Part shown: positions 20,486-63,359 of the stretch, piece after piece
Numbering within the stretch: position 1 is the first letter of the stretch
How the letters are laid out: each line of letters opens with the position of its first letter
Assembly (NCBI GenBank): GCA_947625085.1
Contig: CANQMV010000002.1
Span: 1,490 to 65,489 of the forward strand
Length of the DNA: 64,000 bases
Direction of reading: 5' to 3'
Source: an uncultured Bacilli bacterium
GTDB lineage: Bacteria; Bacillota_I; Bacilli_A; RF39; UBA660
Position numbers and translations under genes: made by a program
Notes under the pieces: generated by a model
What the model was told of the DNA's origin: nothing
What the model saw: only the letters and a program-made list of their open reading frames with translations
Database searches by the model: none

Positions 20486-22952
20486 AGATTTTGATAATAA
20501 AAAAATTCAAGAATTTGAATATAAAAAAAGTATAAACGTTGATGGTGAAATAATTGGAACTTGTGAATTAGGAACAGCAGAATTTCAAATATTAAATAAT
20601 ACCAACGAATATAATAATTTAAAAGGTCAATGGATAAAGACTATCCATGGCTCTTTTTATATTTATAATGTAGAACCAGTTCAAGAAAAAATTAATATAA
20701 AAATAAGTTGTTATGATATTAAATACAAATTAGATACTCCTTATGATAGCAATTTATATTCGTGGCCTATGAATATGAAAGAATGGAGAAATAAAATAGG
20801 TTTTAATTGTGGTGTAGTATTTGATGATTCTGATTTTCCTAATAGTGATTTAATTTTAGAAAATCAACCATATATCGGAGAAAAACCAAGTAATAGAAAT
20901 GTTATACAACAAATAGCAAAAGCAGGTTGTAGTTTTGTTGATAATGATGAAAATGATATCTTATATTTTAATTGGTTTGAAGATAAAATTTATAAAGTAG
21001 ATGATTGGATAGAATTGACAACAGAAAGTAAAAAAACAGAACCTATAAATGTGGTAGTTTTAGGTCGAGGAGACGTTGAGGATAATGTTTATTGGCCAGA
21101 AGATTTGCCAGAAAATAAAGTTGAATTTAGAATTGATAATAATTATATATTAGACCCTCAAGATACGGAAACAAATTATGATAGAAGATATGATGTTATA
21201 AAATCAATCTATAATAGAGTAAATGGATTTTCATATTTGATATTTAATATGAGAACTCAAAAATTGGAAAAAAGATTATCTTTAAAATTAGGTCAAAAAA
21301 TTTCATATTCAGATATATGGGGTAATACATTAGAAGCTTATGTTATGAGTAAAACAATTAAATATTTAGGTGGAGATTCTACTATTGAAAACAATTATGA
21401 GGTTATTATATCAGCTTCAGAAATTAAAGAAAATTCCAGTGAATTTTCATATGCCTCTAATGTTGAAAAAAGACTTTTATCAGTTTCAAGAAAAACCGAT
21501 AAAAATGGTGGCAAAATAGAGGATTTAGTAAAATCACAAGATGAACAGTCAAAGAGGATGGCTCAATTAGAAATTGATAACAAGAGTATTACAGAAACTG
21601 TTGAAAGTGTACAACAGGATATTAAGAATTTAGAAGATACATATACTTTTAGCACCGATTTAGATATTAGTAATTTAATAATACCATCAAATGAAAGATT
21701 ACCTATAGAAACAGGTGATTTTTTTATTAATTATTATTCGTATTTTAAAGGGAAACAAGTAACTCCAATCGTGAGTATCCCTTCAAAAATAGAAGGATTA
21801 GAGATTACTAGCAATGATTCTCAATTAAAAATATCTGTTAGTTCAGAAACTCCAATTGCTAATCTTAACAACGAAGTTGAAATTAACTTTTTATATACAG
21901 AAGATGATTATGTTTATTCCGCTATGAAAAAGGTTATGATTACATTGGCACCAAAAGGAGTAGATGGTAAAGATGGAGAACCAGGAATACAAGGTCCACC
22001 TGGTGAAGATGGAGAACAAACATATTTTTATGTTAAATATTCCAAAAATTCTACAGGAGAATCAATGACCGATATTCCGAATGAAGAAACTGAATATATG
22101 GGTGTTTCAAGTACAACAAGTTCAATAGCCCCAACAAGTCCTAGTGCATATACATGGTCAAAAATTAAAGGTGAAAATGGAAAAGATGGGGAAAATGGTC
22201 AAAATGGTACTCCTGGTAAAAATGGAGAAGATGGAAGAACATCATATTTACATATTAAATATTCTGATGATGGAGTAACTTTTACAGAAGCAGATGATAT
22301 TTATGGCGAAGGTGAAAGACCAAGTTCATGGCGAGGAGAATATGTTGATTTTACACCAGAAGATAGTATCGAATTTAGTGATTATGAATGGTATAAATTG
22401 ACCGAAAGCATTGATGATACATTAAATGATTTACAAAATCAAATAAATGATACTTCAACAAAATCAGACAACAATTATCAAGATTTAGTTAACCAATTAG
22501 GTGACTATGCCAAAGAAGAAAGCATTACAGAAATAAGAAATCAAGTAACACAATATCAAACTTCAACTGAATCTAATATAACAGTTTTAGAAGAAAGAAT
22601 TAGGGATGGAGTAAAAGAAATTACAACTGAAACTGGGTATACATTTGGAAAAGATGGCTTAAAAATTTCTAAAACTGGTGCTCCAACTGGGTTAACAATT
22701 GATGAAAGTGGCCAAGAAGTAGTCGATAAAACTGGTGCTTCAGAACAAACGTTACAATATAACGGTTATGTTGATGATTCTATTGCAACTAAAACCCCAT
22801 TTTTAGATAATTATAAAGGTCAGACAGTCAACTATTCTAAAAATTTAATTTTTGAACAGTATTTAGCATCTCAAAATTTTAGAATGGAAGAATTTCAAGA
22901 TAGTGAGCAAGGGATTTGTTTAGGATTTTTCTATACTGGAGGTGGTAAATAA
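20472..22952 (+). CDS. Tail-associated (Tal-position) structural protein with collagen-like repeats
   Basis: 826 aa after Dit. Two Gly-X-Y runs (GVDGKDGEPGIQGPPGEDGEQ and GENGKDGENGQNGTPGKNGEDGRT) plus a coiled coil. Confidence 0.7.
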   Translation: MIMIKDFDNKKIQEFEYKKSINVDGEIIGTCELGTAEFQILNNTNEYNNLKGQWIKTIHGSFYIYNVEPVQEKINIKISCYDIKYKLDTPYDSNLYSWPMNMKEWRNKIGFNCGVVFDDSDFPNSDLILENQPYIGEKPSNRNVIQQIAKAGCSFVDNDENDILYFNWFEDKIYKVDDWIELTTESKKTEPINVVVLGRGDVEDNVYWPEDLPENKVEFRIDNNYILDPQDTETNYDRRYDVIKSIYNRVNGFSYLIFNMRTQKLEKRLSLKLGQKISYSDIWGNTLEAYVMSKTIKYLGGDSTIENNYEVIISASEIKENSSEFSYASNVEKRLLSVSRKTDKNGGKIEDLVKSQDEQSKRMAQLEIDNKSITETVESVQQDIKNLEDTYTFSTDLDISNLIIPSNERLPIETGDFFINYYSYFKGKQVTPIVSIPSKIEGLEITSNDSQLKISVSSETPIANLNNEVEINFLYTEDDYVYSAMKKVMITLAPKGVDGKDGEPGIQGPPGEDGEQTYFYVKYSKNSTGESMTDIPNEETEYMGVSSTTSSIAPTSPSAYTWSKIKGENGKDGENGQNGTPGKNGEDGRTSYLHIKYSDDGVTFTEADDIYGEGERPSSWRGEYVDFTPEDSIEFSDYEWYKLTESIDDTLNDLQNQINDTSTKSDNNYQDLVNQLGDYAKEESITEIRNQVTQYQTSTESNITVLEERIRDGVKEITTETGYTFGKDGLKISKTGAPTGLTIDESGQEVVDKTGASEQTLQYNGYVDDSIATKTPFLDNYKGQTVNYSKNLIFEQYLASQNFRMEEFQDSEQGICLGFFYTGGGK

Positions 22953-25881: not shown

Positions 25882-26625
25882 ATGAGTAAATATGTTCAAG
25901 ATAATGAATGGGGTACTAAGTATCCAAATTTTAGAAAGGAAGAATTTAAGTGTCCATGCTGTGGTTCATATGGAAATGGTATAGCTACAACTTTACTAGA
26001 TACTTTACAAGAATTAAGAACGAGAACAGGTAAAGCTATAAATATTTCAAGTGGTTACAGATGTTCAAAATTCAATAAAAAAGTAGGTGGAGCTGTTAAT
26101 TCAGCACATATGAAAGGTTCAGCCGCTGATTTTTATTTTGCAGATGGAAGTTTAGGTAATCAAAATACAAGAATATCCTTAGTAAATGAATTAAAAAAAA
26201 CTAAATATTATCATTGGTGTTATTGTAATGTAAATGGAAATTATCCAAACATGGGAGCAGCAATTCATTTTGATAGCCAATTAATAGATTCAACATCTTC
26301 AAGCAGAGAAGAAAGAGTTAAATCACTTCAAAGAGCGTTAAATGCCGACTACAAATGCGGATTAGTTGTCGATGGTTCATTTGGTCCTTTAACAGAGAAT
26401 GCAAGTCATAACAATTATTTATATTATCTAAAAAAAGGAGCTACTAACCATATTAAGTGGCTACAAACTAGATTAATTGAATTAGGTTATTCTGTAGGTA
26501 GTAGTGGAGTAGATGGTTCGTTTGGACCTGATACTTTAGCAGCAGTTAAGAAGTTCCAAAAAGATAAAGGACTTATAATTGATGGAAATGTTGGAAAGGC
26601 AACTCATAAAGAATTAATTAAATAG
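25882..26625 (+). CDS. Endolysin: peptidase M15A-type domain plus two PG_binding_1 repeats
   Basis: N-terminus FRKEEFKCPCCG..SGYRC..NSAHMKGSAADF has the M15 zinc motifs. C-terminus carries a duplicated LQ..L..G....DG.FGP.T motif. Confidence 0.85.
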   Translation: MSKYVQDNEWGTKYPNFRKEEFKCPCCGSYGNGIATTLLDTLQELRTRTGKAINISSGYRCSKFNKKVGGAVNSAHMKGSAADFYFADGSLGNQNTRISLVNELKKTKYYHWCYCNVNGNYPNMGAAIHFDSQLIDSTSSSREERVKSLQRALNADYKCGLVVDGSFGPLTENASHNNYLYYLKKGATNHIKWLQTRLIELGYSVGSSGVDGSFGPDTLAAVKKFQKDKGLIIDGNVGKATHKELIK

Positions 26626-30212: not shown

Positions 30213-31412
30213 ATGCAAAAAGTAGTTATTAATGCAAGTTTAGGAGGAAATATTGAAGGTGGGGTTAATGCTAATTTAGTTGAAAAAGATTTTAATTTAG
30301 AAATATCTAAGTTAATTTATGATAAACTTCGAAGTCTTGGAGTTGATGCGTATTTAGTAAGAGATGATGATAGTACGTTAAGTGATGAAGAAAGACTTTC
30401 AATAATTAATCAATATTTAAATGGAGACTCTGGAATTGTTTTAACTAATAAACTAGCAAGTGGCTTGGATTCTGGAGCCGAAGTTATTTATGCTTTAAAA
30501 GATGCTGATACCTTAGCTATGCAAATTAGTAATAGTATTGAATCTCTTGGTCAAAATATTTTAAAATTTTATCAATTACGAGACCCTAATAATACCGCTT
30601 TAGATTTTTATTCAATTATTAGAGAAGTTCCTGAAAAGGTTGAAAGTCTTATTGTTAGTTATGGTTATTTAGATTCTTCAAAAGATATTGATTTTCTGCA
30701 AACTAAAAAAGAAGAATTAGCAACTAATATTGCTCTTACTATTTATGATTATTTAAATAAAAATAATATTTATGTAGTTAAAGAGGGTGATAGTTTATAT
30801 ACTATTGCTCGTAAATATGAAACAACTGTAGCTAAATTAAAAGAACTTAATAATTTGGTAACTAATAATTTAGCAGTTGGTCAAGAATTAATAATTCCAA
30901 GTAATAAGCAAAATGGTTTGAATTTGTCCGAGCAAGACTTTTTAATTTATACTGTTAAACCAGGAGATACGTTATATACAATTGCAAGAGCAAATAATAC
31001 TACAATAGATGTTTTAAAAGAAATTAATAATTTAGAAAGCGATAATTTAAATTTAGGAGAAATATTAAAAATTCCAACGAAAATTACGAATGAAGATATG
31101 GAAAATTATCAAATATATGTTGTCAAACCTTTAGATAATTTATATGATATTGCGAAAAGATTTAATGTTAGCGTTCTTGAAATTAAAAATTTAAATGGGT
31201 TAAGCAGTGATAATTTAACAATTGGTGAAGTTTTAAAAATTCCAAATCAAAGTAATAAGTCTAATTATTTTAATTATGTAGTTAAAAAGGGTGATAATTT
31301 ATATAAAATTGCTAATTTATATCAAACTACTGTTTCAGAACTTAAAAATTTAAATAATTTAGAAAATAATGATTTAACAGTTGGTAAAGTTTTGAAAGTT
31401 CCCAAAGTTTAA
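30213..31412 (+). CDS. Amidase_3-like domain (zinc ligands substituted) plus four LysM repeats
   Basis: The N-terminus aligns to the MurNAc-L-Ala amidase fold, but GHGG is SLGG and SIHxN is VLTNK. Four Y.V..GD.LY.IA......L..LN repeats follow. Confidence 0.65.
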   Translation: MQKVVINASLGGNIEGGVNANLVEKDFNLEISKLIYDKLRSLGVDAYLVRDDDSTLSDEERLSIINQYLNGDSGIVLTNKLASGLDSGAEVIYALKDADTLAMQISNSIESLGQNILKFYQLRDPNNTALDFYSIIREVPEKVESLIVSYGYLDSSKDIDFLQTKKEELATNIALTIYDYLNKNNIYVVKEGDSLYTIARKYETTVAKLKELNNLVTNNLAVGQELIIPSNKQNGLNLSEQDFLIYTVKPGDTLYTIARANNTTIDVLKEINNLESDNLNLGEILKIPTKITNEDMENYQIYVVKPLDNLYDIAKRFNVSVLEIKNLNGLSSDNLTIGEVLKIPNQSNKSNYFNYVVKKGDNLYKIANLYQTTVSELKNLNNLENNDLTVGKVLKVPKV

Positions 31413-37362: not shown

Positions 37363-38097
37363 ATGAGAATTGCGGTATTTTCTGATATTCATGGTAATTT
37401 AGAAGCTTTAAAAGAAATTTTAAATGATATAGAAAATGAAAAAATTGATGAAGTTATTTGTTTAGGAGATGTTATAGGTCTTGGACCGGAAAGTAAAGAA
37501 TGCCTAGATTTAATAATTTCTAAAAAAATTAAATTTATTTTAGGTAATCATGAACTTTGTTATTTATTTGGTTTTAATATTGATAAAAGTGTTGATTTAA
37601 AAAGAAGTGAACATTATAAATATATTGATAAAATTTTAGGAGAAGAAGAACATAGATTTTTAGAGAAATGTCCGTTGTTTATTGAATGTAAATATTTAGA
37701 TAAAAAGATTTTGTTTGAGCATTTTTTAATTAAAGATAGAAATTTAAAATATCCTTATTATAGTTTAAATATTTTAACGAGTTTAAAAGATAGTTTAGGG
37801 GAAATTGTAAAAAAGACAGGAAATGATTATATTTTTATAGGTCATGAACATACAGGATTTGAATTTGAGGTTGATGATATTAAATTGATTGATATTGGTA
37901 GTAGTGGATGTGTTAAAAATAATATAATTTTTTATACCATTATTGAATTTAAAAATGATATTTCTGTTATGAAAAAGGTTATTACTTATAATAAAGGAAA
38001 ATTAGAAAAAGCATTGTTAAAAGAAGATTATCCTGAAAGATTAGAAATAGCTTCGAAATTTTTTGGAATAAATATTGAAAAAGAAAATTCAAATTGA
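37363..38097 (+). CDS. Metallophosphoesterase (YfcE/MPP family)
   Basis: MRIAVFSDIHGN..GD..G.GP..GNHE..GHEH motifs. Confidence 0.8.
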   Translation: MRIAVFSDIHGNLEALKEILNDIENEKIDEVICLGDVIGLGPESKECLDLIISKKIKFILGNHELCYLFGFNIDKSVDLKRSEHYKYIDKILGEEEHRFLEKCPLFIECKYLDKKILFEHFLIKDRNLKYPYYSLNILTSLKDSLGEIVKKTGNDYIFIGHEHTGFEFEVDDIKLIDIGSSGCVKNNIIFYTIIEFKNDISVMKKVITYNKGKLEKALLKEDYPERLEIASKFFGINIEKENSN

Positions 38098-38103
38098 TAT
38101 AAT
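38075..38103 (+). promoter_or_regulatory. Promoter of leader copy 1
   Basis: TTGAAA 38075-80, 17-nt spacer ending in TGa, then TATAAT 38098-103. Confidence 0.5.
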
Positions 38104-38134
38104 AAAATCATCTAATAAAATAGGATGTGATATT

Positions 38135-38203
38135 ATGTATAAAATAGATGTAAATTATGAAGAAAAAGAAGTTGACAATTTGTCAACCTGGGGGGGGGTA
38201 TAG
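38135..38203 (+). CDS. Leader uORF copy 1 (22 aa, MYKIDVNYEEKEVDNLSTWGGV) containing the palindrome and G9 tract
   Basis: SD AGGATG lies upstream. Inverted repeat GTTGACA-ATT-TGTCAAC at 38171-87. G9 at 38190-98. TAG at 38201-03. The C-terminus and nucleotide core are conserved in copies 2 and 3. Confidence 0.6.
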   Translation: MYKIDVNYEEKEVDNLSTWGGV

Positions 38204-38242
38204 TACTTAAATATCAACTAAATTCTCAAAAATTAAAAGAGT

Positions 38243-38293
38243 AACACTTAAAAAATTGGTAAGAAATTTACCAAATTTTTAGGTGTTTTTTTA
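38243..38293 (+). terminator. Leader terminator copy 1
   Basis: 20-bp stem AACACTTAAAAAATTGGTAA / TTACCAAATTTTTAGGTGTT (one G-U pair, one mismatch), loop GAAAT, then T7. Lies 25 nt before ATG 38318. Confidence 0.8.
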
Positions 38294-38317
38294 AGTTAAA
38301 AAAGAAAGAAGGATTTT

Positions 38318-41305
38318 ATGAATAAAAAAAGTATAATAATTAGTCTAATCGTTTTAACAATCGTATTAATAATTGGAAGTAGTTATGCTTATTTAAAAGC
38401 AGAACGTGAATCTGAAGAACAAAGTTTAAGTATGAAAAACTTTGGAGTAATTTTATTAAAAGATATGGTTTCTGTAACACTAGATAAAACAGTGCCAATG
38501 AGTGATGAAGATGGAATATATAATGAAAGTACAACTTTTGAAATTCAAAATACCGGAAATGTATCAGCAAATTACAAAGTAAGTTTAGTTGATAAAGAAA
38601 CTAAAAGTACAATGAGTAATAATGATATAAGATATCGATTAACTAGGATAAGTTCAATAGATAATACCAAAGAAACTTTTGAAATCAGAAATTTAGATAG
38701 CAACGGAATAATTGATGAAGGAGTAATTGAAGTATCTGAAATAATAACTTATGAAATAGTATTATGGATAGATATAGATGCTAATCCATTAGGTCAAACT
38801 TTTAATAAAGTAGTAGAAGTAGATGCATTTCAAAATAATTCTCTTGATAGAAGTGGAGCTAATCCGCCTGAAATGCTTGCTAGTATGATACCCGTATATT
38901 ATGAAAAACAAACAGATGAAAGTGGAATATGGAAAATTGCTGATATAACCAATAGAAATAAACATTATGCATGGTATAACTATGCTGATTATAAAAAAAG
39001 TGATGCTGAAGATGTAAAAACAATGGTAGCAACTATTTTACCAAGTGGAGATATATCATTAGATGGAACAGATGATTATGTTAATTTAGGATATGAAAAT
39101 TATGATTTTAAAAATAATATTAGTGTAGTAGCAAGATTTAAAGTAAATAGTTTTCCAAGTAATTTTTTTGGTTATATAATAGGAAATGCAGAAGGAGCTG
39201 GTTTTTATTTTGGTGTATTAAATAATAAGAAAATTCGAGTAGGAATTCATGTAAATGGTGGTTATAAAGATTTAACTTCTACAATGACGATAAATGGAAA
39301 TACTTGGTATACAGTAGTCGCCACTTATGATAACAATAAAATTAAATTATATATATATCAAAATGGTAGTTTATTAGAAGAAAATGAAATGTCAGTTACA
39401 GGAGCAATAAAACCTTCAATTGCACCATTAATGTTAGGTGGAAATCCTGGTGTTGATGGAAAACCTTATGGAGAATTCTTAAATTATATAATAAGTGATA
39501 CATTAGTTTACACAGATACGTTAACTGATACCGAAATAAAAAATTATTTTACAAATGAGATAATAGATTATCCAAAAGATAATTTACTAGTTGAAAAAAT
39601 AGGCTTTTTAGAAAGCGAATCTAACAGGTGGGCTAATGTTATAACCTTGAAAGAAGGGGAAAGAAAATTAGTTGATGAAACCTTCACTAGTATTCCAGAT
39701 ACAAAATATTATGAAATTTTAGATAATGGAGATATTTATTTAGATGGAGTTAATGATTTTTATAATTTAGGTCATGCTAATGAAGAATTAGGAAGTAATA
39801 TTAGTTTAGTTGCAAGATTTAAATTAAATAGTTTAAACAATGAAACCCGTATAATTTCCAATACCCAAGGTGGAGGATGTATGATACGAATTCTGTCAAC
39901 TAAAAAAATTGGCTTTAGTATTCATATTAATGGAGCCTATCGTGATCTTATGAGTACTAATTTAATTGAGGTAGGAAAGTGGTATACAGTAGTTGCTACC
40001 TACGATAATTCTAAAATGAAACTTTATGTTTATCAAGAAGGAAAACAAATTGAAACTAAAGAGCAAGAACAAACTGGTGCAATAACTAAATCAGCAGCTC
40101 CTTTTACGCTAGGCTCTGAACCAGATGCCTTTGGATTTCCTGTAGATATTACTTCTATAAATGGAACAATAAGTAAGGCAATAATATATAAAGATACTTT
40201 AACTTTAGAAGAAATTACTAATAATTTTACTAATGAAATAACAAATTATCCTGAAGATAATATTTTAATAGATGTTGGAAAGGGAAAATATATTGAACAA
40301 AAGAATTATTATACAATAAATGACCAAGGAGAAATAACTTTTAATGGGCAAGATAATTTTTTAAATCTTGGCTATGAAAATTATGATTTTAAAAATAATG
40401 TTAGCCTTGTTACTAAATTTAAGATATTTTCTTTAAATAAAAGCAATAATAGTTTAATTGGAAATGCTGAAGGTGGTGGTATAAGTCTTTATGTAAATAA
40501 TAATAATATTAGATTTGAAGTTCATACGGGAGGAAGTTATCATTACCTTGCAAGTGATATGACAATTAACGAAAATAAATGGTATACGGCAGTAGGAACT
40601 TATGATGGAAGTAAAATGAAATTATATATCTATCAAGATGGAAAACAACTGGAAGTTAAAGAACAAGCTCAAACTGGTGCAATAACTAAATCACCTGCTC
40701 CTTTAATGTTAGGTGGTAATCCTAATGCTTATGGTTTTCCTACTGATAGTTTTCTAAATGGTTCTATAAGTTCAACCTATGTCTATAATGATACTTTAAC
40801 TGATATGGAAATTGAAAGTATCGGAAATGATATAAAACAATATCCAAAAAATAACTTATTAATAGCTTATGAAGATTTTAAAGAAAAAAGTGAAAGAGAA
40901 ATTTTATTAAAATCTGAACCAGGAACTGAGATTAAGACGGAAAATATAGCAAATGTATGGGTTTGGATACCAAGATTTAAATATAATAGTTTAAATGAAA
41001 GTGTTAATTTTTCAAATGGAATCAAAAAAGAAGAAACTACTCTGCAAGCATTTACCAATGAAAATAAAGAACTAGTAGGTTTTTATGTAAGTAAAGAAGA
41101 TATAAATAATTTAGAAGAAGTAAAACAAAATATAATAGATAATAATAAAAATTATGAGGTTCATACAATAAATGATAATGAAAAAGCAGCCGCCAATTAT
41201 CTTTTAAATTCAAAATATGGAAATAAATCTCAGTTGGGAAACACTTTAACTAATAATCGAGCAGTTATTGATATATACCATGAATTTCCTTGGCTTAACG
41301 AATAG
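38318..41305 (+). CDS. Large secreted/anchored protein (paralog A)
   Basis: Domain order: N-terminal anchor, beta-sandwich domain, three LamG/ConA-like repeats, and a truncated FGE-like C-terminus. The N-terminus MNKKSIIISLIVLTIVLIIGSSYAYL resembles SipW/camelysin-type signals. Each LamG-like repeat has DG.DD/NF.NLG....NIS.VA.FK...WYTVVATYD..K.KLY.YQ.G. The C-terminus carries WVWIPRFKY and ..LVGFYVSKE.. homologous to paralog B. Confidence 0.8.
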   Translation: MNKKSIIISLIVLTIVLIIGSSYAYLKAERESEEQSLSMKNFGVILLKDMVSVTLDKTVPMSDEDGIYNESTTFEIQNTGNVSANYKVSLVDKETKSTMSNNDIRYRLTRISSIDNTKETFEIRNLDSNGIIDEGVIEVSEIITYEIVLWIDIDANPLGQTFNKVVEVDAFQNNSLDRSGANPPEMLASMIPVYYEKQTDESGIWKIADITNRNKHYAWYNYADYKKSDAEDVKTMVATILPSGDISLDGTDDYVNLGYENYDFKNNISVVARFKVNSFPSNFFGYIIGNAEGAGFYFGVLNNKKIRVGIHVNGGYKDLTSTMTINGNTWYTVVATYDNNKIKLYIYQNGSLLEENEMSVTGAIKPSIAPLMLGGNPGVDGKPYGEFLNYIISDTLVYTDTLTDTEIKNYFTNEIIDYPKDNLLVEKIGFLESESNRWANVITLKEGERKLVDETFTSIPDTKYYEILDNGDIYLDGVNDFYNLGHANEELGSNISLVARFKLNSLNNETRIISNTQGGGCMIRILSTKKIGFSIHINGAYRDLMSTNLIEVGKWYTVVATYDNSKMKLYVYQEGKQIETKEQEQTGAITKSAAPFTLGSEPDAFGFPVDITSINGTISKAIIYKDTLTLEEITNNFTNEITNYPEDNILIDVGKGKYIEQKNYYTINDQGEITFNGQDNFLNLGYENYDFKNNVSLVTKFKIFSLNKSNNSLIGNAEGGGISLYVNNNNIRFEVHTGGSYHYLASDMTINENKWYTAVGTYDGSKMKLYIYQDGKQLEVKEQAQTGAITKSPAPLMLGGNPNAYGFPTDSFLNGSISSTYVYNDTLTDMEIESIGNDIKQYPKNNLLIAYEDFKEKSEREILLKSEPGTEIKTENIANVWVWIPRFKYNSLNESVNFSNGIKKEETTLQAFTNENKELVGFYVSKEDINNLEEVKQNIIDNNKNYEVHTINDNEKAAANYLLNSKYGNKSQLGNTLTNNRAVIDIYHEFPWLNE
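39040..40870 (+). repeat. Three tandem ~600-680-bp intragenic repeats (LamG-like modules)
   Basis: Repeat cores start near 39060, 39740 and 40340. The 24-mer CAAACTGGTGCAATAACTAAATCA occurs at 40070 and 40670, exactly 600 nt apart. Confidence 0.8.
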
Positions 41306-41306
41306 A

Positions 41307-41335
41307 CTATTGATTTATAATCAATAGCTATTTTA
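41307..41335 (+). terminator. Probable terminator
   Basis: CTATTGAT-TTATA-ATCAATAG stem with a weak T-run. Confidence 0.45.
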
Positions 41336-41407
41336 ATTATTGAATAAGAATTTAATTTTAGTTATAATATTTTTATAAATGTTTAAAATTAAATGAAAGG
41401 AAATTTT

Positions 41408-42634
41408 ATGAATATAGTTGATATAATAAATAAAAAAAGAGTTAAAGAAGAACTTACTAAAGAAGAACTTGAATATGCTTTTAATGGCTATTTAAATAAT
41501 TATGTTAAAGATTATCAAATGGCATCTTTATTAATGGCTATTTGTATAAATGGAATGAGTGAACGAGAAACCTTTGATTTAGTTGATATTTTTATTAAAA
41601 GTGGTGATACTCTTGATTTAAGTTTTTTACCTGGTATTAAAGTTGATAAACATTCAACTGGTGGAATTGGAGATAAAATAACCTTAATTATCGGGCCAAT
41701 TGTTGCATCGTGCGGCGTAGTTGTTCCTAAAATGAGTGGCCGAGGATTAGGTTATACCGGAGGAACGATTGATAAATTAGAAAGTATTAAAGGTTTTAAT
41801 GTTTCGCTTTCTGAAGATGAGTTTTTAAATGCTTTAAAAAAAGTTGGGTTTGCTGTAACTGGTCAAACTAGTAATCTTTGTCCACTTGATAAAGTAATTT
41901 ATGCCCTACGAGATGTAACAGGTACCACCTCATCAATTCCTTTAATTGCAACTTCTATTATGGCTAAAAAAATTGCTGGTGGTGCTGATAAAATTTTAAT
42001 TGATATAAAATGTGGTAAAGGAGCTTTAATTACTAATTTAGAAGAGGCTAAAAAATTAAAAACTTTAATGGAGAAAATTGGTAACTTTTATAATCGTGAG
42101 ACAATTTGCGAAATAAGCGATATGAATACTCCTCTTGGCACTAATATAGGAAATAGTTTAGAAGTTTTAGAAGCAATCGAAGTTTTAAAAGGAAAAACTG
42201 GACCTTTAACAGATTTAGCTATTAAAATAGCAAGTGAAATGATTAGTCTTTCCAAAGAAATACCATTAAATGAAGCTAAAAGTTTAGTTTTAAAATCATT
42301 ACAAGAAGGTCTTGCCTACAAGAAATTTCAAGAATTTGTTGAAAATCAAGGTGGTGATTTAAATTCTTTAGAAATTAGCAAACATAAAGAAATTATTAAA
42401 AGTCCTAAAAAAGGTAAAGTTATCAGTATTAATGCTTTAAATATTGGTAAATTATCTTGTAGTCTTGGGGCAGGCAGAATAAATAAAGAAGATAAAATTG
42501 ATTATGGAGTTGGAATTGTTTTAAATAAATTAGTAGGAGATTACGTAGAAGTTAATGATGATTTATTTACCTTATATAAAAAAGATAACAATAAAATAAA
42601 TCTTAATCTTGAAGATTACTATGAAATAAAATAA
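41408..42634 (+). CDS. pdp: Pyrimidine-nucleoside phosphorylase
   Basis: ..DYQMASLLMAI...GM...E......VDKHSTGGIGDK..MSGRGLG.TGGT.DKLE.. ATG 41408 follows AAAGGAA. Confidence 0.9.
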   Translation: MNIVDIINKKRVKEELTKEELEYAFNGYLNNYVKDYQMASLLMAICINGMSERETFDLVDIFIKSGDTLDLSFLPGIKVDKHSTGGIGDKITLIIGPIVASCGVVVPKMSGRGLGYTGGTIDKLESIKGFNVSLSEDEFLNALKKVGFAVTGQTSNLCPLDKVIYALRDVTGTTSSIPLIATSIMAKKIAGGADKILIDIKCGKGALITNLEEAKKLKTLMEKIGNFYNRETICEISDMNTPLGTNIGNSLEVLEAIEVLKGKTGPLTDLAIKIASEMISLSKEIPLNEAKSLVLKSLQEGLAYKKFQEFVENQGGDLNSLEISKHKEIIKSPKKGKVISINALNIGKLSCSLGAGRINKEDKIDYGVGIVLNKLVGDYVEVNDDLFTLYKKDNNKINLNLEDYYEIK

Positions 42635-42665
42635 AATTAATAGCATATTCTTAAGTGGTGAGATT

Positions 42666-42896
42666 ATGAATTTATCAGAATTTCAGAATAAAGATGTTAT
42701 TAATATTAAAGATGGCAAAAAAATTGGTAATATTATAGATTGTAGGATAGAACCTGTTAGTGGAAGAATAATCTCTTTTTTAATAGAACCATCAAGAAGT
42801 GTTTTTTCATTAAGAGGAAGTGCTAAAATTGAAATTGATTATGAAAATATTAGTAAGATAGGAGAAGATGTAATTTTAATAAATTACCATGAATAA
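42666..42896 (+). CDS. ylmC: YlmC/YmxH-family PRC-barrel sporulation protein
   Basis: 76 aa; ..DVINIKDGKKIGNI.D..I....GRI.S..I.. pattern. Confidence 0.75.
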   Translation: MNLSEFQNKDVINIKDGKKIGNIIDCRIEPVSGRIISFLIEPSRSVFSLRGSAKIEIDYENISKIGEDVILINYHE

Positions 42897-42898
42897 AG

Positions 42899-43615
42899 AT
42901 GAAAAAGTATAAAAAAAGTGATTTAGAAACATATACATTAGGAACAACTTTAACCCTTGAAGGATTAAATAAAAAAGTAAAATATGCTAAAAGAGTATAT
43001 ATTCATTCTAAACAAGAGAAAAATGAAACTTATGAAAAAATTATAAAAATATGTAATACTAATAAAATTGAAATAATTTTTAGTGATAAAACTATAAATA
43101 CTTTATCAGATAAAGAAAATTGCTTTATTATTGGAGTTTTTGAAAAGTTTAACGAAGAAATTGATTATTCCAAAAATCATGTTGTTTTAGTAAATCCTTC
43201 AAATATGGGAAATTTAGGAACTATTATTAGAAGTTCAGTTGGATTTGGGATTTGTGATTTAGCAATTATAAAACCGGCAGTTGATATATTTGACCCTAAA
43301 GTAATAAGAAGTAGTATGGGAGCAATTTTTAATCTTCGATTTACTTATTTTGATAGTATTGAAGAATATCTTGAAAAAACGAAAGGAAGAAGTTATTATC
43401 CTTTTATGTTAAAAGCGAAAACGGTTCTTCAAGATGTTAAAAATGAAGGAATTTATTCTTTAATTTTTGGAAATGAAGCAACGGGACTTCCTGATTCTTA
43501 TTTAAATCTTGGGACTAGTGTTATTATTAAGCATACTACTAACATTGATAGTTTAAATTTAGATAATGCAGTTGCAATTGCCTTATTTGAATTTACAAAA
43601 AATGATTTTAAATAG
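42899..43615 (+). CDS. TrmH/SpoU-family RNA 2'-O-methyltransferase
   Basis: SpoU motifs: NPSNMGNLGTIIRS, GNEATGL and LN.AVA.A. Confidence 0.8.
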   Translation: MKKYKKSDLETYTLGTTLTLEGLNKKVKYAKRVYIHSKQEKNETYEKIIKICNTNKIEIIFSDKTINTLSDKENCFIIGVFEKFNEEIDYSKNHVVLVNPSNMGNLGTIIRSSVGFGICDLAIIKPAVDIFDPKVIRSSMGAIFNLRFTYFDSIEEYLEKTKGRSYYPFMLKAKTVLQDVKNEGIYSLIFGNEATGLPDSYLNLGTSVIIKHTTNIDSLNLDNAVAIALFEFTKNDFK

Positions 43616-43664
43616 TTGACATTTTAAAAAATAATTAGTATATATTTGTCTATGAGGTGATGAT

Positions 43665-45698
43665 ATGGATTTAGTAATAGTTGAATCCCCAGCTAAAAGT
43701 AAAACAATTGAAAAATACCTTGGAAAAAATTATAAAGTTGTAAGTAGTATAGGTCATATTCGCGATTTAGCAACAACTGGTAAATATGGACTTGGAATAG
43801 ATATAGATAATAACTTTACCCCTAATTATGTACCAATTAAAGGTAAAAAGAAAGTTATAAGTGATTTAAAAAAATTAGTTAAAGAAGCTTCCAAAGTTTA
43901 TCTTGCAACCGACCCCGACCGAGAAGGGGAAGCTATTTCTTGGCATTTATATGATACCCTTGGCATTAAAAATAAAGACTATTCAAGAGTCTTATTTTAT
44001 GAAATTACTAAAGATAAAGTTTTAGAGGGAATCCAAAAGCCTCGAAAAATTGATTATAATTTAGTTAAGAGTCAAGAGACAAGGCGTTTTTTAGACCGAA
44101 TTATTGGATTTAGACTTAGTAAACTTATGCAATCAAAGACTAGTGGAACAAGTGCTGGTCGGGTTCAAAGTGTTGCTTTAAAATTAATCGTTGATAGAGA
44201 AAGAGAAATTGCAGCTTTTAAAAGTGAGGAGTATTATACTGTTACTGCCTTTTTTAACGATTTTGCTGAACCTTTTACTTCAGAACTTTTTAAATATAAA
44301 GAAGCGGATATTGAGATAAAAACTGAAAATGAAGCTAAAGAGATACTAGCCAAGTTAAGTGCTAATTTCAAATTAGAAAACATTGAAACGAAAACGAAAA
44401 ATAAAGCTAGTAAATTTCCATTTACAACGTCAACTTTGCAACAAGAAGCTTCAACTAAACTTAATTTTAATGCTAAAAAAACGATGATGTTAGCTCAAAA
44501 AATGTATGAAGGTATTGATATAGGTAGTGAAACTGTCGGATTAATTACTTATATGCGTACGGATTCTATTCGGTTAAGTGATGAATTTACAGGTAGTGCT
44601 TTTAAATATATTGAAGAAAAATTTGGAAAAGAGTTTGTTGGGTATATTAAAAGAAGTAAAAAAACTGAAAATGTTCAAGATGCTCATGAAGCAATAAGAC
44701 CAACAAGTATTTTAAGAGAACCTAAAGATTTAGAAAAATATTTAACAGCTGATGAATTTAAATTATATAATTTGATATATAAACGAACACTTGCTTCTTT
44801 GATGAGTGATGCTAAAACTTTAGCAACAACCATCATTCTAGATAACAATGATTATAAGTTTAAAACAACTGGTTCAGTGGTTACTTTTAAAGGTTATTTA
44901 GATGTTTATCAAGAGTTTGAAGATACAAAAGATACGATTTTACCAGATTTAAATGCTAAATTAAATCAAGAAATTGAATCTTCAGAAATTAAATATGAAC
45001 AACATTTTACTAAGCCTAAGCCAAGATATACTGAAGCAAGATTAATTCATGAAATGGAAGAGTTAGGAATTGGAAGACCTTCAACTTATGCAACTATTAT
45101 GTCTAATATAAGAGATCGTGGTTATGTAATTTTGGAAGATAAAAAATTTGTTCCAACTGAAGTTGGAATTCAAGTAACAGATCGCTTGCAGGAATATTTT
45201 AGTAATATTATTAATGTTCGTTATACTGCTAATATGGAAGAAGATTTAGATAAAATTGCTCAAGGTGAATTAAATAATTTAGAGGTTTTAACTAATTTTT
45301 ATCAAATTTTTGATGAAACTCTTCAAAAGGCTTTTAAGGGAATGGAAAAAGAAAAACCTGAAGAAACCGGAGAAGTTTGTCCTGAATGTGGTAATCCTTT
45401 GGTAGTTCGAAAAGGAAGATATGGGGAATTTGTTGCATGTAGTAATTATCCAAATTGTAAATATATAAAAAAAGAAACTCCAGATATTAAAGAAATTATT
45501 GATTGTCCAAACTGTTCTGGTAAAATTGTTGAGAAGCATACTAAAAAAGGTAAAGTTTTTTATGGTTGCAATAATTTTCCAAAATGTAAAACTGCATATT
45601 GGGATATGCCAACTGGGGAGTTATGCCCTAATTGCAACGAAATGTTAGTTAAGAAAAATGATAAAATTAAATGTTCAAAATGTGATTACGAAAGGTAA
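43665..45698 (+). CDS. topA: DNA topoisomerase I
   Basis: TOPRIM N-terminus (LVIVESPAK..DPDREGEAI), active-site YMRTDS, and C-terminal CxxC zinc ribbons. Confidence 0.95.
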   Translation: MDLVIVESPAKSKTIEKYLGKNYKVVSSIGHIRDLATTGKYGLGIDIDNNFTPNYVPIKGKKKVISDLKKLVKEASKVYLATDPDREGEAISWHLYDTLGIKNKDYSRVLFYEITKDKVLEGIQKPRKIDYNLVKSQETRRFLDRIIGFRLSKLMQSKTSGTSAGRVQSVALKLIVDREREIAAFKSEEYYTVTAFFNDFAEPFTSELFKYKEADIEIKTENEAKEILAKLSANFKLENIETKTKNKASKFPFTTSTLQQEASTKLNFNAKKTMMLAQKMYEGIDIGSETVGLITYMRTDSIRLSDEFTGSAFKYIEEKFGKEFVGYIKRSKKTENVQDAHEAIRPTSILREPKDLEKYLTADEFKLYNLIYKRTLASLMSDAKTLATTIILDNNDYKFKTTGSVVTFKGYLDVYQEFEDTKDTILPDLNAKLNQEIESSEIKYEQHFTKPKPRYTEARLIHEMEELGIGRPSTYATIMSNIRDRGYVILEDKKFVPTEVGIQVTDRLQEYFSNIINVRYTANMEEDLDKIAQGELNNLEVLTNFYQIFDETLQKAFKGMEKEKPEETGEVCPECGNPLVVRKGRYGEFVACSNYPNCKYIKKETPDIKEIIDCPNCSGKIVEKHTKKGKVFYGCNNFPKCKTAYWDMPTGELCPNCNEMLVKKNDKIKCSKCDYER

Positions 45699-45711
45699 AA
45701 GAATTACATAA

Positions 45712-45743
45712 AAGAATTTAGAAATAATTTAAATTCTTTTTTG
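45712..45743 (+). terminator. topA terminator
   Basis: AAGAATTTA..TAAATTCTT stem followed by T6. Confidence 0.65.
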
Positions 45744-45798
45744 CTTGATTAAATTCTAAAAATATTGTATTCTTAATATAAGAATAGGAGAACTTGAG

Positions 45799-45876
45799 AT
45801 GGAAAATAAGTTAAAATATTATAAAAATTATCAAAGAAAAGAAGTTGACAAATTGTCAACCATGGGGGGGGGATAG
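45799..45876 (+). CDS. Leader uORF copy 2 (25 aa, MENKLKYYKNYQRKEVDKLSTMGGG)
   Basis: SD AGGAG. Palindrome GTTGACA-AAT-TGTCAAC at 45844-60. G9 at 45864-72. TAG at 45874-76. Confidence 0.6.
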   Translation: MENKLKYYKNYQRKEVDKLSTMGGG

Positions 45877-45915
45877 TACTTAAATATCAAGTAAATCCTT
45901 TGAACTTAAAAGAAT

Positions 45916-45966
45916 AACACTTAAAAAATTGGTAAGAAATTTACCAAGTTTTTAGGTGTTTTTTTA
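45916..45966 (+). terminator. Leader terminator copy 2
   Basis: Near-identical to copy 1 (20-bp stem plus T7). Lies 23 nt before ATG 45989. Confidence 0.8.
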
Positions 45967-45988
45967 AGTTTATTTAGGAGGATGAAAG

Positions 45989-47443
45989 ATGAAAAATAAA
46001 AGAAATTTAATCTTAGTAATTATGGTAATTACAATAATAAGTATTATTTATGTAAAGGTAGATAAAGAAATTAATTTACAAAAAGAAGTAGGAAAAGCAA
46101 TTATTAGTAAGCAAGAAGTAAATGCCGGAGAAGAAAACTATAAAGATGCAACTTTAAAAGGAGCAGACCCAGTTATTAGTGGTAAGTTAATCCCGGTAAC
46201 AATTGATAAAAAAGGGAAAGTAACATATGCCAATATAAAAAAAGAATGGTATAACTATCAAAAGAAAGAGTGGGCTAATGCAGTAATCTTAGTAGATAAT
46301 CCCAGTTTAAACTATAAAGTTGGCAGTGAAATAAAAGAAAGTGATATTGAAAGTTATTTTGTTTGGATACCAAGGTTTAAGTATAAGTTATGGAATGCAA
46401 ATCAAAAAGATGGAAATTATTCTATAGGAAATATAACTGACGATGCAAATTCCTTAACATCATATCGAATGCTTTTTGGAAATACAAGACTAATCGAAAT
46501 AGAGTTTGAAAATAATAAAACAAATAAATCAAATAATACAACTAATGGAGAGTGGCTAACTCATCCAGCCTTTACCTTAAATGGCAAAGAATTAAATGGA
46601 ATTTGGGTTGGTAAATTTGAAACTGGTTATAATCAAGGGGATTCTGGAAAGCCAATTGAAAATACAACAACATGGACATTTGCTAAAGCCCAAGTTGATA
46701 AAGTTGAAAGCGATAAAATAATAGTAAAACCAAACGTTTATTCATGGCGAAATTCAACAGTTTCTAACTTTTTTAAAAGTGCCTATAACTATAACCGAGA
46801 TTTAGATAGTCATATGATGAAAAATACCGAATGGGGAGCAGTCGCTTATTTATCACATTCTTTATATGGAATTGGAAAAGAAATAAATATTAACAATAAT
46901 AATCAATATAAAACAGGTTACTCAGCCGTTATTGGAACCGACCAAAGTAGTTATACGGGAACTGCTGGAACTACATCTAATATAACTTTACCTTATAATA
47001 CTCCAACCGGTTATCTGGCATCAACAACTGGAAATATAACCGGAGTCTATGATATGAGTGGAGGAACTCACGAATATATGGCTGCCTATAGACCATCTTC
47101 AACTAAAGATGAAAGTGGTTTTACAGAAGAAGAATTAACGAAATATGCTGCTTATTTAGATAAGTATGAAAATGCAACCACAACATCATATAGTAAAAAA
47201 ATCTTAGGAGATGCAACGGGAGAGATGGGCCCATTTTATTACTACTTTGATAAAGATAATTCTAAAAGATATCATAATGCCTGGTTCGCCGACATGTCGC
47301 ACTTTGTTGACTCCACTGGTCCGTGGTTCGATCGTGGCGGCGGTCACACGGACGGAGTAATCGCTAGTCAGTTCTACTTCGCTAGGTACACTGGTACGAC
47401 CTACACTTACATCGCCACTCGGCTTGTAGTTACAGGAATTTAA
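45989..47443 (+). CDS. Secreted/anchored protein (paralog B) with an FGE-sulfatase/C-type-lectin-like C-terminal domain
   Basis: N-terminal TM anchor and FVWIPRFKY motif. ..HPAF..G.ELNGIWVGKFE.., ..NTEWGAVAYL.., GVYDMSGGTHEYM and ..RGGG..R..TRLVV resemble the FGE/CLec fold seen in DGR targets. Confidence 0.75.
   Translation: MKNKRNLILVIMVITIISIIYVKVDKEINLQKEVGKAIISKQEVNAGEENYKDATLKGADPVISGKLIPVTIDKKGKVTYANIKKEWYNYQKKEWANAVILVDNPSLNYKVGSEIKESDIESYFVWIPRFKYKLWNANQKDGNYSIGNITDDANSLTSYRMLFGNTRLIEIEFENNKTNKSNNTTNGEWLTHPAFTLNGKELNGIWVGKFETGYNQGDSGKPIENTTTWTFAKAQVDKVESDKIIVKPNVYSWRNSTVSNFFKSAYNYNRDLDSHMMKNTEWGAVAYLSHSLYGIGKEININNNNQYKTGYSAVIGTDQSSYTGTAGTTSNITLPYNTPTGYLASTTGNITGVYDMSGGTHEYMAAYRPSSTKDESGFTEEELTKYAAYLDKYENATTTSYSKKILGDATGEMGPFYYYFDKDNSKRYHNAWFADMSHFVDSTGPWFDRGGGHTDGVIASQFYFARYTGTTYTYIATRLVVTGI
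47279..47440 (+). other. Compositionally aberrant 3' segment (last 54 codons): DGR variable-region-like
   Basis: Sharp switch from AT-rich to about 55% GC. 22 of 54 codons are NNC (GCC TTC GCC GAC CAC GAC TCC TTC GGC GGC CAC GAC ATC TTC TAC TTC TAC ACC TAC TAC ATC GCC). Confidence 0.55.
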
Positions 47444-47463
47444 AAATTATAGTAATTATTAAA

Positions 47464-47511
47464 ATATAGTAAAATAGATGTTAAATAAACTAAAATTACT
47501 ATATTTTTTTT
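47464..47511 (+). terminator. Probable terminator
   Basis: ATATAGTAA..TTACTATAT 9-bp stem (large loop) followed by T7. Confidence 0.45.
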
Positions 47512-47544
47512 ATTAACTATGGTAAAATTATTTTGGGTGTTTGT

Positions 47545-48567
47545 ATGGAAAATATATACAATAAAACATTTAATGAATTAAATGAGTACTTTAAACAACT
47601 TGGAGAAAAGACCTATCGTACTCGTCAAGTATTTGATTGGTTATATATAAAAAGAATTAAAGATTTTCAAGAAATGACCAATTTAAAAAAAGAAATTATT
47701 GAAAAATTAAAAACAGATTTTTTTATTGATGATATAGAAATTATTAAAAAAGAAAGTGATGTACTTGTTAATAAATATTTATTAAAATTAAAAGATGCAA
47801 ATACAATTGAAGCGGTTTTAATGCAACATGATTACGGAAATAGTTTATGTATCTCTTCAGAAGTTGGTTGTAATATGGCTTGCTCTTTTTGTGAATCTGG
47901 AAGAATTAAAAAAATCCGTAACGTTTCAAGTGGTGAGATGGTTTTACAAATTTTAAAAATTGAAAAAGATTTAAATATTCGTATTTCTCATGTTGTTATA
48001 ATGGGAATTGGCGAACCATTTGATAATTATCAAAATATTTGCAAATTTATAGAAACTGTTAATTCTCCGTTTGGAATTAATTTAGGAAGTAGGCATATAA
48101 CTGTTTCAACTTGTGGAATTGTTCCAAAAATTTACGAATTTTCAAACTTTCCTTATCAAGTAAATTTAGCAATTAGTCTTCATGCCCCAAACGATACTTT
48201 AAGAAGCAAATTAATGCCAATTAATAAAGCATATAATTTAAAAAGTTTAATTGAGGCCGTTAAAAAGTATATAGAAAAAACAAATAGACGAGTTACTTTC
48301 GAATATATTATGTTAGATAAGGTAAATGATACCGAAGAATGTGCCATAGAACTTGCTAATTTATTAAAAGGACTTAATGCTTATGTTAATTTAATCCCTT
48401 ATAACGAAACAAATAATATAGGCTATAAAAGAAGTTCAAAAGAACGAATTTTAAAGTTTTATGATTGTTTAAAAAAGCATAATATTAGTGTTACAATCAG
48501 AAAAGAATTTGGTTCAAAAATTAGTGCTGCTTGTGGACAGTTAAAGACAATTAAGGAGGCTTCATGA
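47545..48567 (+). CDS. rlmN: 23S rRNA/tRNA A2503 methyltransferase RlmN (radical SAM)
   Basis: CNMACSFCESG radical-SAM motif and a typical ..YR..Q...W.. N-terminus. Start is ATG 47545 or TTG 47533. Confidence 0.9.
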   Translation: MENIYNKTFNELNEYFKQLGEKTYRTRQVFDWLYIKRIKDFQEMTNLKKEIIEKLKTDFFIDDIEIIKKESDVLVNKYLLKLKDANTIEAVLMQHDYGNSLCISSEVGCNMACSFCESGRIKKIRNVSSGEMVLQILKIEKDLNIRISHVVIMGIGEPFDNYQNICKFIETVNSPFGINLGSRHITVSTCGIVPKIYEFSNFPYQVNLAISLHAPNDTLRSKLMPINKAYNLKSLIEAVKKYIEKTNRRVTFEYIMLDKVNDTEECAIELANLLKGLNAYVNLIPYNETNNIGYKRSSKERILKFYDCLKKHNISVTIRKEFGSKISAACGQLKTIKEAS

Positions 48568-63078: not shown

Positions 63079-63107
63079 TTGCTATTCTAACTTTCTTGTG
63101 ATATTAT
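63079..63107 (+). promoter_or_regulatory. Promoter of leader copy 3
   Basis: TTGCTA 63079-84, 17-nt spacer ending in TGa, then TATTAT 63102-07. Confidence 0.45.
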
Positions 63108-63199: not shown

Positions 63200-63245
63200 T
63201 ACTTAATTTAAAGGGTAACTGTATTTTAAAAATAGACAAAATAAG

Positions 63246-63289: not shown

Positions 63290-63359
63290 AATGCATAAAT
63301 ATTGCTAAACAGGGGCAAACGTGTTATTATAAAAATATAAAAAATAGGAGAGGTAGAAA

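Follow-up and report, generated by a model that had tools for sequence, protein, structure and literature searches.

A candidate poly-G-gated leader attenuator before signal-anchored protein genes of an uncultured Bacilli bacterium

Phase variation by simple repeats is known mainly in two forms, in which a change in repeat number either breaks the gene's own reading frame or alters promoter spacing. Homopolymeric poly-G or poly-C phase variation occurs in Campylobacter jejuni, in pilC and siaD of Neisseria and in tpr of Treponema, and in meningococcal siaD a poly-C frameshift creates a premature stop that leads to Rho-dependent polarity within the gene itself, with no dedicated leader. In its known forms, leader-peptide attenuation senses metabolism or antibiotics: in pyrBI of Escherichia coli the leader open reading frame (ORF) runs through the terminator, and a closely trailing ribosome prevents the hairpin from forming. 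The surface protein CwpV of Clostridioides difficile is phase-varied by forming or not forming an intrinsic terminator in the 5' leader of cwpV. Here we describe a leader cassette that occurs three times in a 64-kb stretch of contig CANQMV010000002.1 from an uncultured Bacilli bacterium (25.9% GC; henceforth the window), each time before a gene for a signal-anchored protein. From its sequence we propose that the cassette could be a modular 5' slipped-strand, phase-variable, ribosome-mediated attenuator for surface-protein genes, a reading that we regard as evenly poised between right and wrong. The element would then combine two known principles, the simple-sequence repeat (SSR) contingency locus and leader-peptide attenuation, in a combination that itself appears to be new.

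Further systems resemble the cassette in single features. Passages of PMC5009743 describe the ermC leader, on which ketolides induce a ribosomal frameshift that bypasses the leader stop, so that translation into the structured spacer activates the gene. The same source, in passages on the IS630 transposase gene of Roseiflexus (Penno et al., 2015), reports that a nascent-RNA stem-loop directly 5' of a slippery motif of about 10 nucleotides (nt) stimulates transcriptional slippage. In the tlpB leader of Helicobacter pylori, a variable G repeat is targeted by the small RNA (sRNA) RepG (PMC8295292). Searches of the literature turned up no leader-peptide attenuator gated by a homopolymer.

The cassette is built around a 48-nt core, AAAAGAAGTTGACAA(A/T)TTGTCAACC-(T|AT)-G9-(T)ATAGTACTTAA, whose three copies in the window (W1, W2 and W3, or copies 1, 2 and 3) show pairwise identities of 90-98%; W1 and W2 have 169 nt in common at 85% identity. 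Each core sits within a short upstream ORF (uORF) that has a Shine-Dalgarno sequence of its own, and a hairpin terminator comes after it (-18 to -20 kcal/mol in W1-W3). The elements of copy 1 are as follows.

38075-38103, + strand: promoter-like site TTGAAA-17 nt-TATAAT with TG before the -10 (11 of 12 matches, the region's best)
38135-38203, + strand: uORF MYKIDVNYEEKEVDNLSTWGGV, 22 codons plus TAG 38201-38203, with an AGGA Shine-Dalgarno sequence upstream
38171-38187, + strand: perfectly matched palindrome, RNA hairpin GTTGACA-ATT-TGTCAAC, -7 kcal/mol
38190-38198, + strand: G9 tract, codons tGG GGG GGG Gta, the proposed slippage site
38199-38210, + strand: two-frame stop trap TATAGTACTTAA, within the 48-nt core
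38199-38244, + strand: long-frame extension GGGIVLKYQLNSQKLKE, read with G10 or G7, whose TAA 38242-38244 abuts the terminator stem
38238-38292, + strand: intrinsic terminator, -20.0 kcal/mol, with core stem from 38243, loop 38263-38267 and T7 tail 38286-38292
38318-41305, + strand: putatively controlled gene, 995-aa protein

The promoter-like site of copy 1 overlaps the stop codon of the upstream metallophosphoesterase gene. From the 3' end of the palindrome to the last G of the tract there are 11 nt. Beyond the tract, TAG 38201-38203 ends the frame set by G9 and TAA 38208-38210 closes the second frame; the third (ATA GTA CTT AAA...) is open. The 25 nt between the end of the terminator and the start of the gene are too short for a further promoter. 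Copies 2 and 3 repeat this layout.

45799-45876, + strand: copy 2 uORF MENKLKYYKNYQRKEVDKLSTMGGG plus TAG, with hairpin 45844-45860 and G9 45864-45872
45911-45965, + strand: copy 2 terminator, -20.4 kcal/mol, T7, with the long-frame TAA 45915-45917 at the stem base
45989-47443, + strand: putatively controlled gene of copy 2, 484-aa signal-anchored protein
63079-63107, + strand: copy 3 promoter-like site TTGCTA-17-TATTAT with TG
63134-63199, + strand: copy 3 uORF MVKIEKLSQKEVDKLSTWGGV plus TAG, with hairpin 63167-63183 and G9 63186-63194
63243-63288, + strand: copy 3 terminator, -17.6 kcal/mol, whose 5' arm is crossed by the long frame, with TAA 63265-63267 in the loop
63302-63330, + strand: second promoter-like site 3' of the copy 3 terminator, TTGCTA-17-TATTAT with TG
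63360-64000, + strand: putatively controlled gene of copy 3, signal-anchored protein, running off the window

The tract of copy 2 stands in the context AT-G9, against T-G9-T elsewhere, with the same length and the same frame. An earlier note on this stretch had described these elements as a candidate phase-variable attenuator. By rereading the regions and recomputing ORFs and folds we reproduced its coordinates for all elements of the three copies, and one extra G again carried the uORFs to TAA 38242-38244, 45915-45917 and 63265-63267. The note had also held a G9 run to be very unexpected in such AT-rich DNA, and the counts bear this out: runs of at least eight G occur in the 64 kb at these three sites only (six overlapping matches against 0.07 expected, a number that none of 100 shuffles reached). 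Since such runs are found only at the three leaders in DNA of 25.9% GC, the homopolymer is longer than base composition predicts, as in contingency loci. GGG accounts for 10% of the Gly codons in the window, and the 18-nt palindrome likewise occurs there at the three leaders only (0.11 expected). On the minus strand the palindrome, together with a T-rich run derived from K codons, scores as intrinsic-terminator-like in all three copies (38169-38189, 45843-45861 and 63165-63185), and no convergent gene is present at these sites.

In the mechanism that we propose, the promoter would start a leader transcript, and a ribosome would load on the short uORF and enter the poly-G tract always in the same frame. 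Slippage at the DNA level would alter the length of the tract (8-10 G) and thereby set, heritably, the frame in which the ribosome leaves it. In two frames the conserved double stop would free the ribosome 32 nt or more short of the stem, the hairpin of 17-20 base pairs (bp) with its U tract would form, and only a short leader RNA would be made (OFF). In the third frame the ribosome would translate as far as the terminator's 5' arm, or into or through it, the arm would be occluded, and polymerase would read into the gene (ON). A ribosome there would cover about 12-13 nt of mRNA 3' of its A site and so keep the lower half of the stem from forming beside the U tract. The minimum free energy (MFE) fold of copy 2 contains an extended helix in which UCCUU of the long-frame region pairs with the gene's AGGAGGA Shine-Dalgarno sequence, and translation through the long-frame region would also open this sequestering helix. 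The conserved hairpin 5' of the tract would probably act on RNA polymerase, either as a pause that lets the ribosome catch up or by favouring slippage. It ends 11-12 nt before the last G, which is the spacing of a hairpin-dependent pause.

Compared with SSR contingency loci, the cassette has the over-long homopolymer, the length polymorphism, the frame change by plus or minus 1 nt and the link to genes for surface or host-interaction functions. Unlike in those loci, the tract lies in a dedicated uORF of 16-25 codons before a terminator and not in a structural gene or a promoter spacer, and the frame change would act on read-through instead of truncating the protein. The order of promoter, short leader ORF, intrinsic terminator and gene is that of pyrBI and of the antibiotic-responsive leader attenuators of Firmicutes; as in leader-peptide attenuators, a hairpin within the cassette leader could synchronise ribosome and polymerase. 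By contrast, the input would be a heritable DNA length and not charged tRNA, nucleotide pools or a drug. The MFE folds of the leaders contain no conserved alternative antiterminator helix. Codons that could sense a metabolite related to the operon were not found either: the only unusual codons are the GGG Gly codons, and the downstream genes are not genes of glycine metabolism. We also considered, and rejected, an antiterminator pairing of the poly-G run as in pyrG of Bacillus subtilis, for which the A/U-rich terminator arms offer no C tract.

The likeness to ermC is that a frame change within the leader ORF would send ribosomes into a downstream structure, and the Shine-Dalgarno-sequestering helix of copy 2 recalls the translational block of that system. 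In ermC, however, the shift is ribosomal and drug-induced and relieves a translational block, whereas here the DNA tract would fix the frame, and the structure that ribosomes would meet is a transcription terminator. The cassette also differs from cwpV, which uses site-specific DNA inversion and has no uORF and no homopolymer.

We looked for related leaders in other genomes. An exact-core scan of one genome per species (185,579 species) returned a single true homologue, leader R1, in the uncultured rabbit-gut Bacilli metagenome-assembled genome (MAG) GCA_947630865.1 (contig L005); its other three matches were chance palindromes. The scan of JGI metagenomes gave one match, by chance, and no real copy, and that of IMG/VR gave no match. 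Through a homologue of the 484-aa protein we reached leaders R2 and R3 on another contig of the same MAG (L006/L011), and an identical-protein look-up of YbeY, encoded upstream of copy 3, led to a second strain of copy 3 (contig L012), which differs from it by a 3-nt in-frame indel, has G9 and lies next to a 100% identical YbeY. A profile made from six leaders translated in the long frame matched seven already-called ORFs, and a library-wide HMMER search added three more. These roughly 10 further copies, called ORFs of 36-58 aa with the motif KV[DN]x[LMEV]ST[WMC]GGG and a tail, were found precisely because they are long; one of them was obtained as DNA (leader S1, on gut metagenome contig L013). 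The DNA sample consists of eight copies: W1-W3, the second strain of copy 3 (L012), R1 (L005), R2 (L006), R3 (L011) and S1 (L013). The comparative search that the earlier note had suggested has thus yielded homologous leaders in other genomes, with five further DNA copies. The contigs of the second strain and of S1 have 1.4-2x coverage, the contig of the called ORF P0126 was used in its 683-nt ENA version and not as the 26-kb NCBI contig, and contig L001 ends 32 nt short of the copy 1 tract.

On these scans the element is confined to a sparsely sampled lineage of about 24-28% GC. Homologues of the 484-aa protein in other lineages (L007 and L008 with 57% identity, L010 with 59%) have ordinary upstream regions and no leader. 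Because homologues this similar lack it, the leader is best described as an added regulatory module and not as part of the gene family. A motif common to copy 3 and R3, AGGGGCAAAYGT, was not significant.

The small number of carriers (one real match among the species genomes and none in the JGI metagenomes or IMG/VR) and the very low coverage of several contigs are what one would expect if the cassette were a non-functional repeat, a remnant of a duplicated small gene or a mobile fragment, with differences in the G run produced by assembly or sequencing errors. We think this very unlikely. The frame of the uORF has been kept through at least five independent indels, the G run is retained in all eight DNA copies at 25% GC, and the terminator has undergone compensatory changes. 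In addition, the cassette always stands on the same strand before genes for signal-anchored proteins, and both frames occur in many independent assemblies.

The conservation of the uORF itself concerns its frame. In all eight DNA copies the Shine-Dalgarno sequence and ATG stand in the same frame relative to the core, with 6, 6, 11, 12, 12, 15, 16 or 23 codons between the ATG and the Val codon of the core. With N-terminal lengths that vary and a frame that does not, every indel must have been a multiple of three. Since the frame of entry into the G run is constant despite an N-terminus of 6-23 codons, the uORF is translated and under selection for translation; judging from these alignments, the ribosome must enter the tract in a defined frame. 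A short translated leader ORF between a promoter-like site and the gene is also what leader-peptide attenuators have.

Within this frame, what has been kept is nucleic acid and not peptide. Substitutions in the core are mostly non-synonymous (E>K, D>N, K>N, L>E), and the codons of the palindrome arms show no synonymous variation. Past the tract, leaders of different types have unrelated tails, and those of W1 and W2 differ by four non-synonymous codons against one synonymous codon. Because a palindrome is not produced by selection on a peptide, the alignments indicate that the conserved constraint is on the nucleic acid, namely the hairpin. This hairpin has 7-8 bp and -7 to -10.8 kcal/mol, and its stem ends 1-3 nt before the G run in six of the eight copies. 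In R1 (L005 7901-7922) and R2 (L006 2876-2897) there is also a hairpin of 9-10 bp, CUUAGAAAA-N3-4-UUUUCUAAG, directly after the G run; it contains both short-frame stops and has no equivalent in the window copies.

The same alignments bear on the idea that the long-frame uORF is a real gene for a small peptide, for example a secreted peptide of double-glycine type with an ...LSTxGG leader, which has its own terminator, undergoes phase variation itself and stands upstream of the surface genes by coincidence. The stretch LSxKEVDKLST(W/M)GGG is loosely like LSxxELxxIxGG, and long-frame ORFs of 36-58 aa have been called in several assemblies. We give this idea hardly any weight, as different leader types have unrelated tails after GGG, these tails evolve non-synonymously, and where they do resemble one another the resemblance tracks the nucleotide sequence of the terminator. 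No relevant peptide or leader family of Pfam or NCBIfam, double-glycine models included, matched at E <= 10, and in the span around copies 1 and 2 (37363-48567) the eight ORFs scanned contain no C39-peptidase or ABC-transporter domain. In W1, W2, R2 and R3, moreover, the downstream gene has no promoter of its own.

A constraint on nucleotides could also mean that the palindrome and G run are the site of a trans-acting factor, be it a repressor or roadblock, a C/U-rich sRNA or the anti-Shine-Dalgarno sequence, with tract length tuning the binding and the uORF frames secondary. The 7-3-7 palindrome is perfect, reads TTGACA on either strand and has been conserved as nucleotide sequence, and the G run is a strong Shine-Dalgarno-like sequence. 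The tlpB leader shows that variable G repeats in 5' leaders can be sRNA targets (PMC8295292), and the cassette has in common with it a length-variable G repeat in the 5' leader of a surface-related gene, with tuning of expression established for tlpB. There, however, the repeat is an untranslated sRNA target, whereas here it forms part of a translated ORF of conserved frame, and behind it come stops specific to the frame and then a terminator. A translated ORF in a fixed frame, stops in two frames and an open third frame would all be superfluous in a pure binding site, and the palindrome mismatches of R2 and R3 are asymmetric. The 64-kb window contains no C-rich intergenic element that could encode a partner sRNA of the RepG type, the only C5 on the + strand lying inside a minus-strand ORF. 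Rfam 15 at its gathering score found three tRNAs in the window and nothing else, and in the leader permissive thresholds gave nothing beyond sub-threshold hairpin matches. Taken together, we hold a trans-acting factor to be an improbable explanation. Promoter-spacer phase variation, with the TTGACA of the palindrome as -35 and the TATAGT that follows the tract as -10, was considered and rejected: the spacer is 21 nt, and the rabbit-MAG copies have no -10 there.

The slipped-strand attenuator that we propose calls for tracts that change in length, and they do: W1-W3, the second strain of copy 3, R3 and S1 have G9, R1 has G8 and R2 has G10. The called ORF P0123, from another assembly, is the exact long-frame product of the R2 leader and requires G9 where the MAG has G10; thus the tract changes by single Gs while its surroundings stay fixed. 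The earlier note had named a tract invariant in deep population data as an outcome that would count against switching. Across genomes the tract varies, with G8, G9 and G10 in a single MAG and G10 against G9 at the R2 locus, between conserved flanks.

The frames beyond the tract are just as regular. Two of them close within 0-9 codons after it, and the third reaches the terminator. The stop motif that follows the tract is TATAGTACTTAA in the window copies, TCTAGTACTTAG in S1 and CTTAGAAAATAG in R1 and R2, and the short-frame stops lie 2-10 nt past the tract (6 and 25 nt in R3). In each of the seven leaders that reach the terminator, the long frame has no stop before the stem, and the other frames have 1-5 stops over the same span. 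Relative to the first base of the stem, the long frame ends at -2 in W1 and W2, in the loop in W3 (+22), just past the hairpin in R1 and R2 (+45 and +42), at -1 in R3 and inside the 5' arm in S1 (about +4), so that it overlaps or abuts the terminator in seven of seven leaders, against a chance level of 0.4-0.57 per leader. The relation between frame and terminator, whose absence from homologues the note would have taken as contrary evidence, is therefore present throughout. Both states occur naturally: six DNA copies are in the short frame (W1-W3, the second strain of copy 3, R1 and R2), and R3 and S1 are in the long frame, as are the roughly 10 called ORFs. To reach the long frame, W1-W3 and R1 need a shift of +1 base, R2 of -1 and R3 and S1 none.

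The terminators themselves have -13 to -25 kcal/mol and U5-U7 in the seven leaders that extend that far, which places an intrinsic terminator before the gene as in attenuators, and their pairing is kept between genomes through compensatory changes (for example GGUAAG/UUACC against GGUCC/GGACC). In W1, W2, R2 and R3 the terminator lies 25-45 nt from the start codon with no promoter between. As there is neither room nor signal for a promoter after the terminator, these four genes depend on read-through.

The short-frame state of the window copies would also be expected if the change of frame occurred mainly at the level of RNA or ribosome, by polymerase slippage or a ribosome shift on G GGG GGG, and were no heritable DNA switch. 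A set or regulated fraction of ribosomes would then enter the long frame, and the genomic G9 short frame would be the normal working state. Several features fit: nine identical bases correspond to the length of the RNA-DNA hybrid, G GGG GGG agrees with the slippery pattern X XXY YYZ, the palindrome is conserved at the nucleotide and not the peptide level, and all four copies of the window's species are in the G9 short frame, copy 2 by compensating changes. A hairpin followed after 1-3 nt by a homopolymer of 8-10 nt has the geometry of intrinsic terminators and of transcriptional slippage as passages of PMC5009743 describe it, and in six of the eight copies a stem-loop does lie directly 5' of the slippery homopolymer, as in the Roseiflexus IS630 gene. 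That gene, by contrast, slips on U5C5, whereas the cassette has G8-10, an AU-rich stem of -7 kcal/mol and a slip direction that varies by copy. The shifts needed (+1, -1 or 0) reveal no single programmed direction, differences in length demonstrably exist at the DNA level, and the hairpin is weak in R2 and R3. Nor is there any structure at the 5-9-nt spacing usual for -1 frameshifting, the post-tract hairpin of R1 and R2 starting directly after the tract. We consider a change of frame in RNA or on the ribosome unlikely. A prfB-like +1 frameshift at the stop after the Shine-Dalgarno-like G run was also tried and rejected, since a TAA ends the +1 frame two codons on and re-pairing of the P-site codons is impossible.

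Several observations weigh against a phase-variable attenuator. All four copies of the window's species (three paralogues and the second strain) have G9 in the same short frame, and G9 in this frame could itself be selected, with copy 2 keeping both length and frame through compensating changes (AT-G9- against T-G9-T). The tract lengths of the second strain and of S1 come from low-coverage metagenome contigs, in which homopolymers can be miscalled. When spacers are shuffled, some frame remains open as far as the stem in 40-57% of trials per leader; the product over six leaders is 0.013, a figure that ignores kinship, W1 and W2 not being independent of each other, nor R1 and R2. The hairpin is degraded in R2 (-4.0 kcal/mol) and R3 (-0.6) and so is not strictly required. 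The promoter of copy 2 is weak or unclear. In copy 3 the promoter-like site at 63302-63330 could make the gene partly independent of read-through; its hexamers are identical to those of the leader promoter at 63079-63107, and it may be a duplicated promoter that bypasses the attenuator. Finally, transcription and translation are poorly coupled in B. subtilis, where ribosomes trail RNA polymerase, so that attenuation by occlusion in Bacilli would need a pause. On balance, the phase-variable reading advanced in the earlier note is supported in part: its comparative predictions hold, but the relation of frame to terminator is by itself only weakly significant, and the copies of the window's species are all in the G9 short frame.

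The genes behind the leaders encode proteins with an N-terminal signal-anchor. The 995-aa protein of copy 1 carries, besides this anchor, three LamG_3 (concanavalin-like lectin) domains; the downstream proteins of copies 2 and 3 had no Pfam match. Within the 995-aa gene, three internal repeats of about 600-680 nt with 62-76% DNA identity (39035-40663) match the three LamG_3 domains. The earlier note had assigned the three proteins to one paralogous secreted family. The signal-anchor is indeed found in all three and the short motif VWIPRFKY in two of them, and the N-terminus of the copy 3 protein is similar to that of the 995-aa protein; BLASTP among the three gives E = 2e-5, 0.026 and 0.39, with otherwise weak N-terminal similarity, and from their sequences they are not clearly one paralogous family.

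The 484-aa protein of copy 2 belongs to a family of more than 7,900 proteins, which in relatives is a target of a diversity-generating retroelement (DGR). Its homologue behind leader R2 of the rabbit-gut MAG is a bona fide DGR target: the last 156 nt of the gene (variable repeat, VR; L011 4796-4951) match at 92% a template repeat (TR; L011 5202-5357) that lies 406 nt downstream, and 11 of the 12 mismatches fall at TR adenines, the twelfth at a TR T, 2 bases from the 3' end of the repeat. The TR is followed by genes for a MutS_I-like protein, bAvd and a reverse transcriptase (L011 5675-7405), an arrangement also found in L010. No TR for the window's 484-aa copy was found in 27-64 kb of the window. 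The leader was also considered as a DGR initiation-of-mutagenic-homing (IMH)-like element and rejected as such: it lies 5' of the genes, whereas VR and IMH lie at the 3' end. In L010 (1-2963) the gene for the family member stands in an operon behind those for an S26 (SipW-like) signal peptidase, a DUF5305 protein and a 197-aa protein, and the G(S/T)SYA(Y/L)L-type signal ends of the proteins encoded behind the leaders suggest processing of SipW type.

Genes for LamG lectin-like and signal-anchored proteins, one of them a DGR target behind R2, are typical of contingency switching. On a judgement that falls slightly short of even, the cassette may represent a previously undescribed class of contingency switch, a portable poly-G-gated attenuator that has spread before unrelated surface-protein genes, including one diversified by a DGR. 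If so, ON/OFF switching and targeted hypermutation would act on the same surface protein. It would add a third route of repeat phase variation, in which a heritable, stochastic change in DNA length feeds a leader-peptide attenuator, leaves the coding sequence untouched and can be moved before any gene; such a cassette would be missed by current phase-variation predictors, which examine ORFs and promoters. The question bears on surface variation, in the face of host immunity and phages, among bacteria of such poorly known, uncultured gut lineages. In addition, the hairpin and G run may serve as a natural model on which to study slippage or pausing of polymerase assisted by a hairpin.

Elsewhere in the window, positions 1-26625 hold a siphovirus-like prophage, and three tRNA genes lie within the same span.

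5996-6404: three tRNA genes
7101-8453: prophage terminase large subunit
8408-9907: prophage portal
13039-14001: prophage major head protein
18018-20048: prophage tape measure
20472-22952: prophage tail or host-range protein
25882-26625: prophage endolysin

Between the prophage and copy 1, an ORF of 399 aa (30213-31412) contains four tandem degenerate repeats of about 141 nt (30758-31402; 61-74% identity, period 159-177 nt) and probably encodes a repetitive surface protein.

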